Below, in pieces: positions 8,778-38,206 of a stretch of 40,464 nucleotides of DNA (the first letter of the stretch is position 1; each line of letters starts with the position of its first letter). This DNA comes from a virus (taxonomy: Duplodnaviria; Heunggongvirae; Uroviricota; Caudoviricetes), in the IMG/VR virus record IMGVR_UViG_643348545_000008, positions 1 to 40,464 of that record. One strand, written 5' to 3'. A model generated the notes under the pieces. That model saw only the letters and a program-made list of their open reading frames with translations. It was not told the DNA's origin and searched no databases. A program made the position numbers and the translations under genes.

Positions 8778-8853
8778 GGCCCTTTAGCTCAGTGGTGAGA
8801 GCGAGCGACTCATAATCGCCAGGTCGCTGGTTCAAATCCAGCAAGGGCCACCA
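8778..8853 (+). tRNA. tRNA with CAT anticodon, closest to E. coli tRNA-Ile2 (ileX/ileY-like; formally Met/Ile)
   Basis: 76-nt cloverleaf with GGCCCTT/AAGGGCC acceptor stem, anticodon loop CTCATAA, TTCAAAT T-loop and encoded CCA. Confidence 0.8.
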
Positions 8854-8862
8854 TATCACATA

Positions 8863-8939
8863 CCGCCATTAGCTCATCGGGATAGAGCGCCAGCCTTCGA
8901 AGCTGGCTGCGCGGGGTTCGAGTCCTCGATGGCGGTCCA
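8863..8939 (+). tRNA. tRNA-Arg (anticodon TCG)
   Basis: 77-nt cloverleaf with CCGCCAT/ATGGCGG acceptor stem, anticodon loop CTTCGAA, TTCGAGT T-loop and encoded CCA. The discriminator base is unusual. Confidence 0.7.
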
Positions 8940-9217: not shown

Positions 9218-9646
9218 ATGTATTGCCGTGCTGTACCAGTTCTTGTTTTGATATTAGCCAGTCTGACAACTGGCTGCACAAAAGATGTATCGACAAATAA
9301 TTATGATGCTTCTCTGTATCACTCAGATAAATTAATAAAGTCGCAAAATTTGAGCTCATCGGAACGTACCCCTGATGCCAGTGAAGAAATCAGGCAGTAT
9401 GCCATTCAGGTCAGGAAAGCCATAGAAGAACAGTTAAAGGATGCGAGTAAGTATTCAGGAAAAGAGTGTTCACTGAGAATGTATATGGCCCCGAATGGTC
9501 TTCTGCTACAGGTTAAAAGAGAAAGCGGTGATCCCGATTTATGTCGTGAAGCGATGAATGCAGTAAAGAATGCTGATATACCATCACCACCGTCTTCAGG
9601 AGTATATAAAGCATTTAGAAATGGCGTGCTGGATTTTAAACTCTGA
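9218..9646 (+). CDS. Lipoprotein with TolA C-terminal (domain III)-like domain (142 aa)
   Basis: Signal peptide with lipobox-like LTTGC. Residues 55-142 align by eye with E. coli TolA domain III (GKECSLRMYMAPNGLLLQVKRESGDPDLC...IPSPPSSGVYKAFRNGVLDFK versus GKTCTLRIKLAPDGMLLDIKPEGGDPALC...IPKPPSQAVYEVFKNAPLDFK). ggag RBS. Confidence 0.7.
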   Translation: MYCRAVPVLVLILASLTTGCTKDVSTNNYDASLYHSDKLIKSQNLSSSERTPDASEEIRQYAIQVRKAIEEQLKDASKYSGKECSLRMYMAPNGLLLQVKRESGDPDLCREAMNAVKNADIPSPPSSGVYKAFRNGVLDFKL

Positions 9647-15306: not shown

Positions 15307-15801
15307 ATGAACCGTGTTCTGTGTGTGGTGATTATTGTCATGCTGGTAGCCTGTGGTGCGCTTAGTCTGGGGCTGAATCATTACCGTGATAACGCCATCA
15401 CCTACAAAGAGCAGCGCGATAAAAAAGTCAGTGAGCTGGAGCAGGCAAATGCAACCATTACTGATATGCAGCAGCGCCAGCGTGATGTTGCTGCACTTGA
15501 TGCCAGATACTCGAGGGAATTAGCCGATGCGAGAGCTGAAAATGAAACTCTGCGCGCTGACGTTGCCGCTGGTCGTAAGCGCCTGCGGGTCAACGCCACC
15601 TGCCCCGGTACCGTGCGTGAAGCCACCGGCACCTCCGGCGTGGATAATGCAACCGGCCCCCGACTGGCAGACACCGCTGAACGGGATTATTTCATCCTCA
15701 GAGAACGGTTGATGACAATGCAGAAGCAGCTGGAAGGGGCGCAGGACTATATCCGCACTCAGTGCACTAAGCTGGCTTTTTATTATCCGGAGGATACATG
15801 A
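15307..15801 (+). CDS. i-spanin Rz (164 aa)
   Basis: N-terminal transmembrane helix then a coiled-coil periplasmic domain. Contains an embedded +1-frame lipoprotein gene. Confidence 0.8.
   Translation: MNRVLCVVIIVMLVACGALSLGLNHYRDNAITYKEQRDKKVSELEQANATITDMQQRQRDVAALDARYSRELADARAENETLRADVAAGRKRLRVNATCPGTVREATGTSGVDNATGPRLADTAERDYFILRERLMTMQKQLEGAQDYIRTQCTKLAFYYPEDT
15542..15712 (+). CDS. o-spanin Rz1, embedded in Rz in the +1 frame (56 aa)
   Basis: MKLCALTLPLVVSACGS signal peptide and lipobox, followed by proline-rich sequence. Entirely inside Rz. Confidence 0.7.
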   Translation: MKLCALTLPLVVSACGSTPPAPVPCVKPPAPPAWIMQPAPDWQTPLNGIISSSENG

Positions 15802-16022
15802 AGAAATTACGGGTAACCGTAGAACCTTTTCAGGGAACAATTCCGTTCCGTATTTTGCAGCGTGGTCGTGTTCTTGTTGAAGGTTCGTTCAGTGGTAAAT
15901 GTACGCAATTACACTCCCGGACCTTTCAGGTGAATGCCACGAATGAAGAGCTAACCGTGGAGTGTACGATGAATGCCGCTAAATGCCGCATGGTATCCGC
16001 TGCATTACAGCCAGTGTGTTGA
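15798..16022 (+). CDS. Hypothetical protein (74 aa), translationally coupled to Rz
   Basis: ATGA overlap with the Rz stop. No family recognised. Confidence 0.35.
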   Translation: MKKLRVTVEPFQGTIPFRILQRGRVLVEGSFSGKCTQLHSRTFQVNATNEELTVECTMNAAKCRMVSAALQPVC

Positions 16023-16360
16023 GCGACCTTATTATCCATGCGCGGTATTGTCGCCGTATTCCTGCATTAACAGAGACCGCAGCCCGACAGGGAGACTCCT
16101 CTGCGAGAGTGTGCGGGGATAATCAAAAACGATACACACCGGGGTTTACCGCGTTAACGGAGCGCGGCGTTGTCCCCTCATGGTCGCTGGTCCGGTGCGA
16201 TGGTGGAAGAAACCGGACGATGTGTTACCTCGCAAGCTCTGTTATGTCATGTGTCTGATTTGTGATTTAAGTCGGATAATTGTCGTTGCCATTAAACAGA
16301 GGATTGATGACCGACAGGGTGGCATTGTTAGAATAAGACTTATTCTTATCTGTGCCGGGA

Positions 16361-16693
16361 ATGAAAATGAAAAGAAATCTTCCGTTAATTATTTTGTTGT
16401 CTTCTCTGGTTATGGGCTGTACGCAACATAAAACAGATATGCCCCGACAGTTGGTTAAGGCATTACCACAATATCCGGCCTATGCAGCGGCAAATTATAT
16501 AAAGGGACGGGTTGATGTGAAGTTTGATATTGGTGCTGATGGTACTGTCACCCGAATTGAGTTTATCCGTTCAGAGCCGCACCATTTGTTTGATGAGCAG
16601 GTTGTAAAGGCGATGGCAAAATGGCGATTTGAGAAGGACAGGCCGTGTAAAGGCGTGAAGAAAACGTTTATCTTTAGTCCTTCTGCACCCTGA
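16361..16693 (+). CDS. Lipoprotein with TonB C-terminal-like domain (about 110 aa)
   Basis: Signal peptide with lipobox-like LVMGC. PQYPAYAAANYIKGRVDVKFDIGADGTV...FDEQVVKAMAKWRFE aligns with the TonB C-terminal domain ([28 protein letters not shown]...FEREVKNAMRRWRYE). Confidence 0.7.
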   Translation: MKMKRNLPLIILLSSLVMGCTQHKTDMPRQLVKALPQYPAYAAANYIKGRVDVKFDIGADGTVTRIEFIRSEPHHLFDEQVVKAMAKWRFEKDRPCKGVKKTFIFSPSAP

Positions 16694-30700: not shown

Positions 30701-30967
30701 GCCGGGCTGATGGGGGAAGCCGGACCTGAAGCCATAATGCCCCTGACCCGGGCGGCGGATGGCTCGCTGGGCGTACGTGCCGTGGGCAGGATGAACGGGA
30801 GTGCGGGTCTGGTGTATTCCCCGGTCTACCACATCGCCATTCAGAATGACGGGGCCAACGGTCAGATAGGGCCGGAGGCGGCAGGCAGCCTTGTGCAGCT
30901 GATTGACCAGCGGGTGCAGGCGGTGATGCTGTCCATGCGACGAGACGGAGGAATGCTGAGTGGCTGA
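27725..30967 (+). CDS. Tail tape measure protein (lambda H-like, 1080 aa)
   Basis: Very long Ala/Gln-rich alpha-helical protein between G/GT and M. Confidence 0.85.
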   Translation: MATLRELIIKISANSQSFQSEIQRASRMGSEYYRTLQNGGRQAAAVAREQRRALAELNSQLTEIRASAAGTAGAFAGAFATGHLISLADEWSSVNARLKQASQSSDEFSSSQKVLMDISQRTGTAFSDNAALFARSAASMREYGYSAGDVLKVTEAISTGLKISGASTAEAGSVITQFSQALAQGVLRGEEFNSVNESGDRIVRALAAGMGVARKDLKAMADDGKLTADKVVPALISQLGVLRDEYAAMPETVSGSITKVENAFMAWVGGANEASGATKTLSGVLNGVAGHIDNVATAAGALVAVGVARYFGNMASGAVSATAGLVTAARNEVALAEAQLRGTQIATARARAAVYRAQQAVAAARGTEMQIAAEARLAATQERLNRNIAARTAAQNALNSTTAVGSRLMTGALGLVGGVPGLVMLGAAAWYTLYQNQEQARESARQYALTIDEIAHKTPSMSLPEASDNEGRTRAALAEQNRLIDEQASRVKSLQEKIAGYQYVLANPGWTTGDGFMINHLTSVKTVTEGLSQATEQLAVEQSRLAQMQEKAQSIQDVLAGLEDRRVALIRQQAAEQNKVYQSMLVMNGQHTEFNRLLGLGNELLQQRQGLVNVPLRLPQATLDDKQQSALTKTERELALSRLKGEEKERARLGYAADDLGFVGDSYQEARQRYISNALEAWRNNEANKPKSRGGKSETEKAEDSFSRLLKQQKEQLALAGQNTELAKLKYQTAQGELKTLTEMQKHELLRNAALIDQQKIREQLRSREETLKNDNVAARASNEAELLGYGQGERARERMRELQQIRDSFRQKDADLQSQYQTGDISEDFYRQARAQNAQYLSERLKDQAAFYAESDAQRADWQKGLQEGLSNWVDNASDYASQAAQLATEGISGMVNNITEMLNGNKVEWRNWASSVLQEISKVLMNAAIVNGIKTAANSMSGAGGFIGSIGDWLGGAVANAKGGVYTSANLSAYSNSIVDTPTYFAFAKGAGLMGEAGPEAIMPLTRAADGSLGVRAVGRMNGSAGLVYSPVYHIAIQNDGANGQIGPEAAGSLVQLIDQRVQAVMLSMRRDGGMLSG

Positions 30968-31301
30968 GATAAAAACGCTGCATCTGGTCCCGCGTGAAGG
31001 GATGCAGGTGAGTGAGAAACCGTCGGTGGTGAGGGTCCGGTTTGGTGACGGTTATGAACAGCGCCGACCGACGGGACTGAATGCCCAACTGAAGACGTTT
31101 CAGGCGGTGTTCCGGGTGACGGATGAGGCGACCCGGCGCTGGCTGGATGAATTTTTATCGTGGCATGGTGGTTACCGTGCCTTTTTGTGGCGACCGCCGA
31201 AACATAACCGGACGGTGAGGGTGGTGTGCCGGGAGTGGAGTATTACGGATAACGCCAGGTACAGCGATTTCAGTTGTATGATGGAACAGGTAATAAGATA
31301 A
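30960..31301 (+). CDS. M: Minor tail protein M (113 aa)
   Basis: VRFGDGYEQRRPTGLNAQLKT ... HGGYRAFLWRPP resembles lambda gpM (VRFGDGYSQRAPAGLNANLKT ... HGGWKSFLWTPP). Confidence 0.8.
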   Translation: MAEIKTLHLVPREGMQVSEKPSVVRVRFGDGYEQRRPTGLNAQLKTFQAVFRVTDEATRRWLDEFLSWHGGYRAFLWRPPKHNRTVRVVCREWSITDNARYSDFSCMMEQVIR

Positions 31302-31507: not shown

Positions 31508-32671
31508 ATGAAAAAAATGACAGTGGCACTTTCAGCTGTGGCAGCAGCTGTAATTTTTGCAGCGGGGGCGCAGGCTGCAGAAGTATACAATAAAGATGGC
31601 AATAAACTTGATGTGTATGGGCGTGCAACTGCACTCCATTATTTCTCCAGTGATAAGGGGGATGATGGAGATAAGACATACGCACGTCTGGGCTTTAAAG
31701 GTGAAACTCAGATTAATGACCAGTTGACTGGTTTTGGTCAGTGGGAATATCAGTTCTCTGGTAATAAAGCTGAATCAGAGGGTGCTGCGGGTAATAAAAC
31801 CCGTCTTGCATTTGCAGGTCTGAAGTTTGGTGAGTTTGGCACCATTGATTATGGTCGTAACTATGGTATTGCGTACGATGTTGGTTCTTATACTGACGTA
31901 TTACCAGAGTTTGGCGGTGATGGCTGGACCCAGACCGATAACTTCATGACAGCCCGTACTTCCGGGGTATTAACCTATCGTAATACAGATTTCTTTGGGC
32001 TTGTCGATGGCCTGAATTTTGCGGCACAGTACCAGGGTAAAAATGATCGGGGTGATCTCCGGAAAGCTAATGGTGATGGTCACGGTTTCTCAGCCAGTTA
32101 TGAATATGAAGGTTTTGGTATCGTTGCCGCATATATTAATGCGGACCGAACCAATAATCAGGAAAAAGGTCTGAATGGTACTCTGACGATTGAACAAACT
32201 GATCCTTTAACCGGTAAAGTGACTGAAAAGCAGATCGTTGTTGATTCCGGTAGTGTTGCAAAAGGTAAACACGCTGAGATGTGGGGAGTCGGACTAAAAT
32301 ACGATGCTGACAACCTTTACCTGGCTACAACATATTCCGAAACTCAGAATCTGACGACCTTTGGTGATAAAGGAGTTGCAGATAAAGCGCAAAACTTTGA
32401 AGCGGTACTGCAGTATCAGTTTGATTTCGGTCTGCGTCCATCTCTGGCATTCCTGCAGTCTCGTGCTCAGGATGTCATTGTAGGTGGTAAAAACTATGGT
32501 GACCAGGATTTGGTTAAGTATGTTGACGTAGGTGCGAAATATTACTTCAATAAAAATATGTCCACCTATGTTGATTATAAAATCAATCTGGTTGATGAGA
32601 ATAAGTTTACCAGGGATGCGGGCATTGCAACGGATGATATCGTTGCTGTTGGTATGACTTATCAGTTCTGA
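31508..32671 (+). CDS. Outer-membrane general porin, OmpC/NmpC/Lc family (387 aa)
   Basis: Signal peptide ending [19 protein letters not shown]-terminus. Conserved PEFGGD and [13 protein letters not shown] motifs. C-terminal ...YQF. Confidence 0.85.
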
Positions 32672-32852: not shown

Positions 32853-32866
32853 ATGGGTGGATGTTT

Positions 32867-33565
32867 ATGCAGGAGATCAACGAAGAAAGCCTGAATGAGT
32901 CGGTTAAATCAGAGCAGTCACCGCGGGTGGTACTCTGGGAAATTGACCTGACGGTGCAGGGTGGTGAGCGGTATTTTTTCTGTAATGAGCTGAATGAAAA
33001 AGGGGAGCCGGTCACCTGGCAGGGGCGGAAGTACCAGGCATACCCGATTGACGGCAGCGGCTTTGAGATGAACGGGAAAGGGAGCAGTGCCCGCCCGTCA
33101 CTGACGGTGTCGAATCTGTTCGGGCTGGTTACCGGGATGGCGGAGGATTTGCAGAGCCTGGTGGGGGCCACGGTGGTTCGTCGCCGGGTGTATGCGCGTT
33201 TTCTGGATGCGGTGAATTTTGTGGCAGGCAATCCGGAGGCTGACCCGGAGCAGGAGCTGACGGACCGCTGGGTGGTGGAGCAGATGTCGCAGCTCACAGC
33301 CATGACGGCCTCGTTTGTGCTGGCGACACCGACGGAGACGGACGGTGCGTTGTTTCCCGGCCGCATCATGCTGGCGAACACCTGTATGTGGACCTACCGC
33401 TCTGATGAGTGTGGTTACACGGGCGGGGCGGTGGCGGATGAGTTCGATAAACCCACCACCGATATCCGTAAGGACAGATGCAGCAAGTGCATGCGCGGGT
33501 GTGAACTGCGCAGGAATGTCGGCAATTTTGGCGGTTTCCTTTCCATTAATAAACTTTCGCAGTAA
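32867..33565 (+). CDS. L: Minor tail protein L (about 232 aa)
   Basis: VVLWEIDLTVQGGERYFFCNELNEKGEPVTWQGRKYQAYPI is near-identical to the lambda gpL N-terminus. Ends GNFGGFLSINKLSQ. Confidence 0.85.
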   Translation: MQEINEESLNESVKSEQSPRVVLWEIDLTVQGGERYFFCNELNEKGEPVTWQGRKYQAYPIDGSGFEMNGKGSSARPSLTVSNLFGLVTGMAEDLQSLVGATVVRRRVYARFLDAVNFVAGNPEADPEQELTDRWVVEQMSQLTAMTASFVLATPTETDGALFPGRIMLANTCMWTYRSDECGYTGGAVADEFDKPTTDIRKDRCSKCMRGCELRRNVGNFGGFLSINKLSQ

Positions 33566-35073: not shown

Positions 35074-35106
35074 CAGGCATCCTCCGGGGTGCCTGTTGTT
35101 TTTTGG
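35074..35106 (+). terminator. Hairpin plus T-tract, candidate terminator just upstream of J
   Basis: caggca-(10 nt)-tgcctg followed by ttgttttttgg. Confidence 0.4.
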
Positions 35107-35147
35107 GCATAAACAGATTCAGACATCAGACAGGAGAGGGGGACAGA

Positions 35148-37539
35148 GTGGGTAAAGGTGGCGGCAAGGCACACACGCCTCGTGAGGCGAAGGATAATCT
35201 CAAATCCACGCAGATGATGAGCGTGATTGATGCCATTGGTGAGGGACCGATAGAAGGTCCGGTGAAGGGACTGCAGAGTATCCTGGTGAACAAAACCCCG
35301 CTGACGGACACGGACGGTAATCCCGTGATACACGGTGTGACCGCCGTCTGGCGTGCCGGGGAGCAGGAGCAGACACCACCGGAAGGCTTTGAGTCCTCCG
35401 GAGCTGAAACTGTACTGGGTGTGGAAGTGACGAAGGCAAAACCGGTGACACGCACCATTACGTCAGCGAACATTGACCGCCTGCGGGTGACCTTCGGGGT
35501 GCAGTCACTGGTGGAGACCACGTCAAAGGGTGACCGTAATCCGACGTCTGTCCGCCTGCTGATTCAGCTTGAGCGTGGTGGTAAATGGATGACGGAAAAG
35601 GATGTCACCATTAACGGCAAGACCACCTCGCAGTTCCTGGCGTCGGTGATTCTGGATAATCTGCCGCCCCGGCCCTTTAACATCCGGATGGTCAGGGAGA
35701 CGGCGGACAGCACCACGGACCAGCTGCAGAATAAGACGCTCTGGTCGTCATACACCGAAATCATCGATGTGAAACAGTGCTACCCGAACACGGTCATTGT
35801 GGGGCTGCAGGTGGATGCGGAGCAGTTCGGCGGCCAGCAGATGACGGTGAACTACCATATCCGTGGTCGCATCATCCAGGTGCCGTCAAACTATGACCCG
35901 GAAAAACGCACGTACAGCGGTATCTGGGACGGCAGTCTGAAACCGGCATACAGCAACAACCCGGCCTGGTGTCTGTGGGACATGCTGACTCACCCGCGCT
36001 ACGGCATGGGAAAACGCCTGGGGGCGGCGGATGTGGACAAGTGGGCGCTGTATGCCATCGGGCAGTACTGCGACCAGACGGTCCCGGATGGTTTCGGGGG
36101 CACAGAGCCGCGGATGACCTTTAATGCGTACCTGGCACAACAGCGTAAGGCATGGGACGTGCTCAGTGATTTCTGCTCGGCGGTTCCGGATTAACGCACC
36201 GGCAGCGCCTGCCGGTGTTGAACTGACGCCGGGGTATTTTCAGATAACGGCAGTCCCGCGTCTTGCGGTGTATGACCCGACGGTGCAGTTTGAGTTCTGG
36301 TTTTCGGAGGCAAAAATTGCAGACGCCGCACAGGTGGAAACCTCTGTCCGTTATCTGGGGACCGGCAGTCAGTGGAGTGTCTCCGGTCCGCACATTAAGC
36401 CCGGAAAGGATTTCTGGTTTTATGTGCGCAGCGTCAACCTGGTGGGTAAATCTGCTTTTGTGGAAGCCAGTGGACGGGCGAGCAATGATGCTGCGGGCTA
36501 TCTGGAACTTTTCCGGGAAAAGATAGGAAAACTGCATCTGGCAGAGGCGCTGTGGGCAGAGATTGACAACAGTCAGCTGAAGGACGAGATGGCGGAAATG
36601 CAGACCACCATCACCGAAACCCGCAATGAAATCACACAGACGGTCAGTAAAACGCTGGAGGACCAGAGCGCCACCATACAGCAGATACAGCGCGTGCAGA
36701 AGGACACAAATGATGACCTTGCTGCACTTTACATGCTGAAGGTACAGAAAACAAAAAATGGCATACCCTATGTTGCCGGTATTGGAGCGGGGATTGAGGA
36801 TACTGATGGCCAGCCCCTGAGCAACATACTGCTGCTGGCTGACCGTATTGCGATGATTAACCCGGAGGACGGCAACACCACGCCGTTATTTGTGGCGCAG
36901 GGGAATCAGTTGTTCATGAACGATGTGTTCCTGAAGCGACTGTTTGCGGTGAGTATCACCTCGTCCGGCAATCCCCCGACGTTTTCCCTGACGCCGGAGG
37001 GCAGGCTGACCGCAAGAAATGCTGATATCAGCGGTAACGTGAATGCGAATTCCGGGACGCTCAACAACGTCACGATTAACGAGAACTGTCGGGTTCTGGG
37101 AAAACTGTCCGCGAACCAGATTGAAGGCGATCTCGTTAAAACAGTGGGCAAAGCTTTCCCCCGGGATTCCCGTGCACCGGAGCGGTGGCCATCAGGGACC
37201 ATTACCGTCAGGGTTTATGACGATCAGCCGTTTGACCGGCAGATTGTTATTCCGGCGGTGGCATTCAGTGGCGCTAAGCATAAGAGAGAGCATACTGATA
37301 TTTACTCCTCATGCCGTCTGATAGTGCGGAAAAACGGTGCTGAAATTTATAACCGTACCGCGCTGGATAATACGCTGATTTACAGTGGCGTTATTGATAT
37401 GCCTGCCGGTCACGGTCACATGACACTGGAGTTTTCGGTGTCAGCATGGCTGGTAAATAACTGGTATCCCACAGCAAGTATCAGCGATTTGCTGGTTGTG
37501 GTGATGAAGAAAGCCACTGCAGGCATCACGATTAGCTGA
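35148..37539 (+). pseudogene. J: Central tail fibre / host-specificity protein J with internal out-of-frame deletion (N-terminal part 35148..36194, C-terminal part about 36190..37539)
   Basis: First ORF matches the lambda J N-terminus (KAHTPREAKDNLKSTQ ... [10 protein letters not shown]) then stops. A second ORF in another frame matches the J C-terminal third ([19 protein letters not shown] ... [10 protein letters not shown] ...). About 400 central residues are absent. Confidence 0.7.
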
Positions 37540-37606: not shown

Positions 37607-38206
37607 ATGCGTAAAGTTTGTGCAGCCATTTTGTCCGCAGCCATCTGTCTGTCCGTATCCGGTGCGCCTGCATGGGCGTCTGAGCAGCAGGCCACGCTGA
37701 GTGCGGGGTATCTTCATGCCCTGACGAACACTACCGGTAGTGATGATCTGAACGGGATTAACGTGAAATACCGTTATGAATTTACGGACACGCTGGGGCT
37801 GATTACGTCATTCAGTTATGCCAATGCTGAAGGTGAGCAAAAAACGCACTACAACGATACCCGCTGGCATGAGGATTCTGTGCGTAACCGCTGGTTCAGC
37901 GTGATGGCGGGGCCATCTGTGCGCGTGAATGAATGGTTCAGCGCTTATGCGCTGGCCGGAGTGTCGTATGCCCGGGTGTCGTCTTTTGCCGGTGATTATG
38001 TGACCCTCACGTCAGATGAGGGTAAAAAGCAGGAGCACCTGACCCGTTCGGACAGCGGACGCCGCAGCCATACCGCACTGACATACAGTGCAGGCGTGCA
38101 GATTAACCCGACAGAAAATATCGTGGTCGACCTGGCTTATGAAGCCTCAGGACGTGGTGACTGGCGTACGGAGGCGTTTATTGTCGGCACCGGATACCGG
38201 TTCTGA
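37607..38206 (+). CDS. lom: Outer membrane protein Lom (Ail/PagC family, 199 aa)
   Basis: Signal peptide. Beta-barrel signature ending GTGYRF. Position immediately after J as in lambda. Confidence 0.85.
   Translation: MRKVCAAILSAAICLSVSGAPAWASEQQATLSAGYLHALTNTTGSDDLNGINVKYRYEFTDTLGLITSFSYANAEGEQKTHYNDTRWHEDSVRNRWFSVMAGPSVRVNEWFSAYALAGVSYARVSSFAGDYVTLTSDEGKKQEHLTRSDSGRRSHTALTYSAGVQINPTENIVVDLAYEASGRGDWRTEAFIVGTGYRF

Follow-up and report, generated by a model that had tools for sequence, protein, structure and literature searches.

A prophage moron encoding a predicted outer-membrane lipoprotein with a TonB C-terminal domain, a possible competitor of host TonB

What might a small lipoprotein built on TonB's C-terminal domain (CTD) do for a temperate phage? 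The question is raised by a stretch of 40,464 nucleotides from a tailed phage (Caudoviricetes; IMG/VR record IMGVR_UViG_643348545_000008), the whole of which is called the window below. One gene of this Escherichia coli prophage, which follows the lysis cassette on the late strand and precedes the HNH/terminase genes, encodes 108 residues, most of which align with TonB (Table 1). A preliminary description of the window had proposed that the product is a lipoprotein with a TonB CTD, that it could exclude TonB-dependent phages and colicins, and that it would form a two-component import-blocking system with a TolA-like lipoprotein of the same prophage. Public records already recognize both gene and domain, under the names ‘TonB family protein’, ‘TonB C-terminal domain protein’ or ‘TonB fragment’, and the gene has been listed as an expressed moron. 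In the searchable literature we found no functional study of the lipoprotein and no statement of the competitor hypothesis, the sole mention being that of an expressed moron in strain LF82. Here, profile searches, alignment and structure modelling confirm a complete TonB CTD, and the gene is found to be a moron under purifying selection; that its product competes with host TonB is a tentative proposal, which we weigh against its alternatives.

The protein matches Pfam PF03544 (TonB_C) with 54.8 bits for a cut-off of 24.6 (E = 1.3e-14) and TIGR01352 (tonB_Cterm) with 54.5 bits for a cut-off of 27.1, and the E. coli TonB CTD structures 1u07, 2gsk and 2grx are matched at E values of about 1e-15. 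Its alignment with E. coli TonB is free of gaps, with 31 of 78 positions identical (40%). Tyr163 and Pro164 of the YP motif, Phe180, Gly186, Phe202, Trp213 and Phe230 (TonB numbering) are all kept, and each of the five aromatic positions of the TonB CTD is still aromatic (Phe180, Phe202, Trp213, Tyr215 replaced by phenylalanine, and Phe230). An AlphaFold2 model built on five family sequences reaches a pLDDT (predicted local distance difference test) of 93–98 over the domain, with β-strands at residues 47–55, 61–70 and 94–103 and a helix at residues 76–84. The best Foldseek matches of this model in the PDB are all TonB CTDs, with TM-scores of up to 0.92. It superposes on BtuB-bound TonB (2gsk, chain B) with a root-mean-square deviation (rmsd) of 1.1 Å over 79 residues (TM-score 0.91) and on FhuA-bound TonB (2grx, chain C) with an rmsd of 1.1 Å. 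The modelled domain spans the same residues as the TonB fragment crystallized on BtuB, and the β3 strand, which pairs with the TonB box in 2GSK and 2GRX, is present, intact and modelled with high confidence. On profile and modelling evidence, the protein is confirmed to have a complete TonB CTD, predicted to consist of a three-stranded sheet and two helices and bearing the YP motif. The domain assignment of the preliminary description is thus upheld by profile matches above cut-off, by the ungapped alignment and by the fold; structure prediction, which it had suggested as a check, did not give the adverse outcome that it named, namely the lack of any TonB C-terminal-like fold. The WRFE motif that it placed at the C-terminus lies in the last third of the protein, not at its end.

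The same description gave an open reading frame (ORF) at 16361–16693 encoding about 110 residues. This ORF exists, and translation from the ATG at 16361 gives 110 residues plus stop, adding only Met-Lys; the true start is nevertheless likely to be the second ATG, at 16367. We take the start there because the Prokaryotic Genome Annotation Pipeline (PGAP) begins the gene at this codon in the identical locus of strain SCU-104 (‘TonB family protein’, WP_000828068.1), because the phage 21 homologue starts at the equivalent MKRR and because a GGGA Shine–Dalgarno sequence lies 7 nt upstream of it.

The N-terminus carries a lipoprotein signal. PROSITE PS51257 describes a basic n-region, a hydrophobic h-region and a lipobox of the [LVI][ASTVI][GAS]C type with its cysteine at positions 15–35, and the pattern is found in the protein as LVMGC followed by threonine, with Cys at position 18 (20 with the alternative start), in line with the lipobox read by the first description. 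Of 15 representatives of the family, reaching down to 34% identity, 14 retain the lipobox, and none has aspartate as its +2 residue. By the Lol sorting rule of E. coli, a +2 residue other than aspartate predicts sorting to the outer membrane. The +2 residue never being aspartate, we predict by this rule that the lipoprotein is sorted to the outer membrane's inner leaflet; both its lipidation and this location are inferred from the signal sequence. The tether between the lipobox cysteine and the TonB domain is eight residues long.

It should be stressed that the protein is not TonB. Against the NCBIfam TonB equivalogs (NF008080–NF008084) its best score is 74 bits for a cut-off of 315, with only model positions 152–240 aligned. 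The transmembrane anchor that couples TonB to ExbB/ExbD and the proline-rich spacer are both absent, a cleavable lipoprotein signal peptide being found instead. In view of these absences and of the lack of a full-length equivalog match, we rejected its identity as the TonB energy transducer. As the anchor and spacer are missing, the lipoprotein cannot, judging from its sequence, transduce energy, and any binding to a TonB box would be non-productive because there is no energy-transducing part.

A second label concerns lysis. The PHROGs family phrog_1267 (‘Rz-like spanin’, category lysis) matches the protein from end to end (E = 5.7e-43). O-spanins are short, proline-rich lipoproteins of the outer membrane whose genes are embedded in, or adjoin, that of the i-spanin, and an i-spanin has an N-terminal transmembrane segment followed by a coiled coil. 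Here, the domain is a globular TonB_C domain, the gene lies 560 bp from Rz and the canonical Rz/Rz1 pair is present, and we rejected the spanin identity on these grounds. The most sensible view of the ‘Rz-like spanin’ label is that it misannotates this family, having probably been inherited from gene position or from lipoprotein status. It should be corrected, as the error will propagate to phage annotations.

The gene belongs to an accessory cassette. In a blastn comparison with phage vB_EcoS-569R3, whose flanking regions are 96–98% identical, the alignment of the window breaks off at 16219 and resumes at 16815, the two breakpoints sharing 9 bp of microhomology, and the lipoprotein gene is the sole gene within the 595 bp between them. 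The G+C fraction is 0.39–0.45 within the cassette compared with 0.50–0.57 outside. The gene is thus a moron, as defined by its presence or absence between collinear phages and by its deviant base composition; the indel and the dip in G+C give substance to the term already used in the preliminary description. Alleles at least 95% identical to that of the window occur in 417 of 5426 complete E. coli genomes, always on the chromosome and including O157:H7, O103, O111 and O145 strains, while an allele of the phage 21 type occurs in 1225 of the 5426, including UTI89. Fifteen deposited phage genomes carry the gene, among them four Stx1a (Shiga toxin 1a) phages, Lys8385Vzw, JLK-2012, phage 21 and ev017; further carriers are three PhiR phages, Perceval and, at 40% identity, a Klebsiella phage. 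When 1.8 billion representative proteins were searched in full with HMMER, further proteins of about 110–130 residues with the same architecture were recovered down to 34% identity, and divergent subfamilies (P0035-like and P0037-like) were found on prophage contigs of IMG/VR, about 40 in number. Among the best profile hits were many proteins of 300–1000 residues (P0034, P0038, P0044 and others) with two to six tandem TonB_C-like stretches, an arrangement quite unlike that of TonB. Compared with the 72%-identical phage 21 allele, the ratio of nonsynonymous to synonymous substitution rates (dN/dS) is 0.12 for a dS of about 1.5, and the gene is under purifying selection.

We may now ask what a TonB CTD tethered to the outer membrane could do. 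The reading that we put forward, tentatively and with slightly less than even confidence, is that the lipoprotein acts as a TonB competitor that binds TonB boxes non-productively and lowers the entry of TonB-dependent phages and bacteriocins; all steps beyond ‘lipoprotein with a TonB CTD’ are ones that we infer. TonB boxes emerge from their transporters at the periplasmic face of the outer membrane. From the inner leaflet, the lipoprotein would pair with the boxes exposed there by β-strand addition to its own β3 strand; candidate partners are the TonB-dependent transporters FhuA, BtuB, FepA and Cir and possibly imported group B colicins. Such non-productive binding would compete with the scarce host TonB, and the TonB-dependent entry of phages, colicins and microcins would be lowered, probably partially, at some cost in siderophore and vitamin B12 uptake. 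Expression would be low in the lysogen, driven by the gene's own promoter, and would reach a high level late in lytic growth, since the gene lies in the late operon.

This proposal has an experimental precedent. According to PMC9841981, which summarizes Howard et al. (2001) and Tuckman & Osburne (1992), iron import by TonB-dependent transporters is inhibited by an overproduced periplasmic TonB domain, and both colicin killing through TonB and infection by phi80 are inhibited by a TonB-box pentapeptide. The premise from which the exclusion idea set out, that periplasmic TonB domains inhibit TonB-dependent uptake, is established. The prophage protein is like these inhibitory laboratory fragments (PMC9841981) in having no coupling to membrane energy, and like the E. 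coli TonB CTD (residues ∼150–239; 1u07, 2gsk and 2grx) in domain family, fold, sequence (40% identity) and the extent of the fragments crystallized on BtuB and FhuA. It differs from them in being the product of a natural gene and in its predicted lipid anchoring to the outer membrane, whereas they are soluble or anchored in the inner membrane. In addition, it ends four residues short of TonB, has prolines after β3 and has substitutions at Gln160, Arg158 and Arg166, and it represents a separate and older lineage of stand-alone lipoproteins.

Regarding expression, a candidate σ70 promoter lies 33 nt upstream of the start codon, and TGTCAGAAT is found at the same place in phage 21 (a pattern match only). 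Given its late-strand position between lysis and terminase genes, the gene should also be transcribed from the late promoter. No terminator-like site was found downstream of the gene. In LF82, the ‘TonB fragment’ LF82_160 of prophage Perceval, which is a phage-21-type allele 72% identical to the window protein, is transcribed eightfold above the prophage background in the uninduced lysogen, and the NmpC porin and sitABCD morons of Perceval are expressed alongside it (PMC9928086).

Several observations weigh against a TonB competitor. Gln160 is replaced by leucine, Arg158 by lysine and Arg166 by tyrosine, at positions that genetics or crystal structures have tied to contact with the TonB box or the transporter, and the equivalents of positions 158, 160 and 166 vary across the family. 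The carrier phages differ in the lysis and terminase modules that we compared, which does not suggest a link to the receptor used by the carrier itself; because the carriers are diverse, such a link is unlikely. Phage 21 lysogens are classical plating hosts for the heteroimmune phage phi80, an indication that expression in a lysogen does not block TonB strongly, and a strong block would also starve the cell of iron. PADLOC-DB 2.0 contains no defence-system model for a TonB-CTD lipoprotein, the protein giving only a chance-level match (E = 0.022). Finally, a 45%-identical member lies outside any prophage in the chromosome of Enterobacter sp. JUb54 (locus L006, 5426–6333), where a glycine-zipper (Rick_17kDa_Anti) lipoprotein gene immediately precedes it and lacZ/lacI and a hydrolase gene are close by, and Raoultella planticola gives a similar 45%-identical match. 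Because members of the family also occur outside prophages, the function need not concern phages at all.

What else could the protein be? It could serve late functions as an accessory protein instead of taking part in lysogenic conversion. In that case it would come chiefly from the late transcript antiterminated by Q, along with the lysis genes, and would act as the cell is dying or lysing; it might, for example, close TonB-dependent entry late in infection, or engage transporters or peptidoglycan at the outer membrane at about the time when the spanins act. Its position speaks for this: in all seven contexts that we examined (the window, phage 21, Klebsiella phage ST13-OXA48phi12.4 and the IMG/VR loci L090, L094, L120 and L121), the gene is found, on the late strand, after the lysis cassette and before the terminase or vice versa, in the interval between them, despite holins (PGAP class II holin family, phage 21 pinholin, Pfam holin 3_1, 3_7 and 8 families), endolysins (lysozyme/signal-anchor-release type, GH19 and GH108) and terminases (Terminase_2, Terminase_4 with TerL, DUF1441 with GpA) of different families. 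PHROGs also files the family under lysis, although, as argued above, this label probably reflects position or lipoprotein status. The slot between lysis and cos/terminase is, however, a well-known moron hotspot (that of bor in lambda, and bor adjoins the gene in phage 21), Rz/Rz1 are already there to do the work of spanins, the gene is dispensable because a related phage is without it, and the LF82 homologue is transcribed without induction, all of which makes a late role improbable in our view. The bor slot also brings to mind an envelope or virulence lipoprotein like Bor/Iss or Lom, in which the TonB-like domain, as a module that binds peptidoglycan or proteins, would alter envelope properties such as serum resistance, the stability of the outer membrane, vesiculation or iron-related signalling without any competition with TonB. 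Like Bor, Iss and Lom, the protein is encoded by a moron, and like Bor it comes from the slot downstream of Rz, as a predicted lipoprotein whose LF82 homologue is transcribed in the lysogen. The prophage also has Lom and a porin, the LF82 homologue is co-expressed with the NmpC porin and SitABCD morons, the chromosomal members outside prophages stand beside another small lipoprotein gene, and the alleles are enriched in pathogenic lineages (e.g. O157:H7, O103, O111, UTI89 and LF82). Moreover, the TonB CTD reportedly binds peptidoglycan, an observation attributed to Kaserer and coworkers in 2008. Yet there is no sequence relation to Bor, Iss or Lom (a Pfam search of the protein matched only TonB_C and TonB_2), the fold of Bor is unrelated, bor is on the opposite strand and no link between its serum-resistance function and TonB is known. 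In the model, the TonB-box-binding fold is kept in full, β3 included, at 1.1 Å rmsd, beyond the needs of a generic anchor, and the short tether would probably hold the domain at the membrane and off the peptidoglycan layer. We find this envelope role about as improbable as the late one.

The domain could instead dock on one TonB-dependent receptor and lock its loops or plug against a specific phage or colicin. This is how T5 Llp acts on FhuA: in 10.1101/2022.06.28.497910 and 10.64898/2026.03.26.714494, it is described as a lipoprotein of the outer-membrane inner leaflet that binds FhuA from the periplasmic side and excludes phages. Variation between subfamilies at the equivalents of TonB positions 158, 160 and 166 is what would be expected if the domain were tuned to different partners. 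The likeness extends to the Cor proteins of phi80, N15 and T1: Llp and Cor are accessory proteins known to act on FhuA, which protect against other phages and some colicins, and all are small phage lipoproteins predicted at the inner leaflet that act, as is proposed here for the TonB-CTD lipoprotein, on a TonB-dependent transporter from the periplasm. No sequence or fold homology to Llp or Cor was found in Pfam, PHROGs or a Foldseek search of the PDB, which gave only TonB- and TolA-type domains, and no partner is known. The diversity of the carrier phages points to no obvious common receptor to protect, and a mimic of the TonB CTD, unlike the receptor-specific Llp and Cor, could in principle engage all TonB boxes. 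An allosteric blocker of this kind therefore also seems rather unlikely to us. The least credible alternative is a functionless remnant of captured host tonB DNA, a notion that public records invite with the entries ‘Partial tonB-like membrane protein encoded within prophage CP-933N’ (LR597643.1) and ‘TonB fragment’ (OV696612.1). The low dN/dS at near-saturated dS, the dedicated lipoprotein signal peptide that TonB does not have and that is kept down to 34% identity, an intact gene in at least 1,600 complete genomes, the transcription of a homologue and an identity to E. coli TonB of only 40%, which does not fit a recent capture, leave it highly improbable; the selection and conservation data effectively refute a dead tonB remnant.

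The positions of the features discussed here are collected in Table 1.

Table 1. Features of the window around the TonB-CTD lipoprotein gene and of related accessory genes (positions in the 40,464-nucleotide stretch).
Feature	Position	Strand	Details
TolA-C-terminal-domain lipoprotein	9218..9646	+	142 residues; Pfam TolA E = 5.7e-23; lipobox LTTGC; AT-rich
Rz i-spanin	15307..15801	+	Pfam Phage_lysis E = 5.7e-50
Embedded Rz1 o-spanin	15527..15712	+	ORF with lipobox VVSAC
Moron cassette, 595 bp	16220..16814	+	Absent from phage vB_EcoS-569R3; flanked by near-repeat AACCGGACG / AACCGAACG
Candidate σ70 promoter	16307..16334	+	ATGACC, 16-nt spacer, TG-n-TAGAAT extended −10 (16326–16334); consensus scan 9/12 plus TG
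Perfect 8-1-8 palindrome AGAATAAG-A-CTTATTCT	16330..16346	.	Overlaps candidate −10; best Fur-box-like match of the region, 13/19
CDS (coding sequence) of the TonB-CTD lipoprotein	16367..16693	+	108 residues; ORF, Pfam TonB_C, NCBIfam and PDB TonB CTD matches, PGAP call
Predicted lipoprotein signal peptide, MKRNLPLIILLSSLVMG followed by C	16367..16420	+	Cys18 codon 16418–16420, +2 residue Thr; PS51257 pattern
TonB C-terminal domain, residues 26–103 (E. coli TonB 153–230)	16442..16675	+	Ungapped alignment, AlphaFold2, Foldseek
lom	37607..38206		

The gene does not directly follow the spanins, as the preliminary description had it: a 74-residue ORF (15798–16022) and about 340 bp of non-coding DNA intervene between it and Rz/Rz1. 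This ORF (+ strand) begins right after Rz, with a start/stop overlap at ATGA. Pfam gives no match for it, related prophages list it as hypothetical, and phages without the TonB cassette keep it as well. A stretch of about 180 bp downstream of Rz (16039–16219) is apparently non-coding and conserved with phage 21 (∼70%) and with cassette-free phages (96%); a small ORF annotated there in phage 21 is not conserved, and this upstream region has no Rfam match at E ≤ 1. Only 14 positions in the whole window reach a Fur-box-like score as high as the 13/19 of the palindrome at the candidate promoter. The palindrome is absent from the phage 21 allele and its significance is uncertain, and we did not adopt regulation by Fur.

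The TolA-like gene, which was to be the partner in the two-component system, lies downstream of tRNA-Met and tRNA-Arg genes (8778–8939) and after Q, in the slot that stx occupies in Stx phages; its PGAP names are ‘tolA’ and ‘cell envelope integrity protein TolA’. The two lipoproteins share a design, namely a lipobox followed by the C-terminal domain with which an inner-membrane energy transducer, itself exploited by colicins and phages, binds its partners, and both are encoded by low-G+C morons of the same prophage. They differ in domain (Pfam TolA for the second), in slot and in distribution. Its window allele occurs in 125 complete E. coli genomes, compared with 417 for the TonB-like allele, and an 81%-identical variant in about 770. 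The sole deposited phage with the TolA-like gene, mEp460_ev081, is without the TonB-like gene, the TolA-like gene is missing from all 15 phage records that have the TonB-like one, and more than 1 Mb separates the two in strain JNEC-KY176 (H45 versus H79). Because they distribute independently, we rejected a functional pairing, and the idea of a two-component system is not supported; the genes are independent morons that share this prophage by chance, with a shared design but not a system. With the porin and lom, they make up four envelope-directed accessory genes in the prophage. The porin gene (31508–32671, + strand) is full-length (Pfam Porin_1, E = 1.8e-139) and stands within the tail cluster between the tail genes at 30960–31301 and 32861–33565. 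Perceval of LF82 likewise has an NmpC porin moron and a TonB-like gene, both expressed in the lysogen (PMC9928086). The gene of the tail-tip protein J appears to be split into two overlapping ORFs (35103–36194 and 36124–37539, + strand), which together fall about 1 kb short of the 3.5-kb J found in the near-identical prophage of SCU-104; the prophage may be defective or its J rearranged.

A wider proposal is that temperate enterobacterial phages carry outer-membrane-tethered mimics of the TonB CTD and, separately, of the TolA CTD, which close TonB- and Tol-dependent import of phages, colicins and microcins. We regard it as possible but doubtful. If true, it would mean a general, receptor-independent superinfection exclusion and bacteriocin tolerance through host mimicry, distinct from the receptor-specific Llp and Cor. 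As for the TonB-CTD lipoprotein, a competitor role would make it a phage-encoded outer-membrane lipoprotein that blocks entry by mimicking the host transducer and not as a dedicated receptor binder, and a natural version of the pharmacological idea of blocking the interaction between TonB and the TonB box. A very common prophage gene would then alter sensitivity to TonB-dependent phages, which matters for phage therapy and host-range prediction, as well as to group B colicins, catecholate microcins and siderophore–antibiotic conjugates (cefiderocol-type ‘Trojan horses’), and it would alter iron and vitamin B12 acquisition in pathogenic E. coli, whether Shiga toxin-producing, uropathogenic or adherent-invasive.

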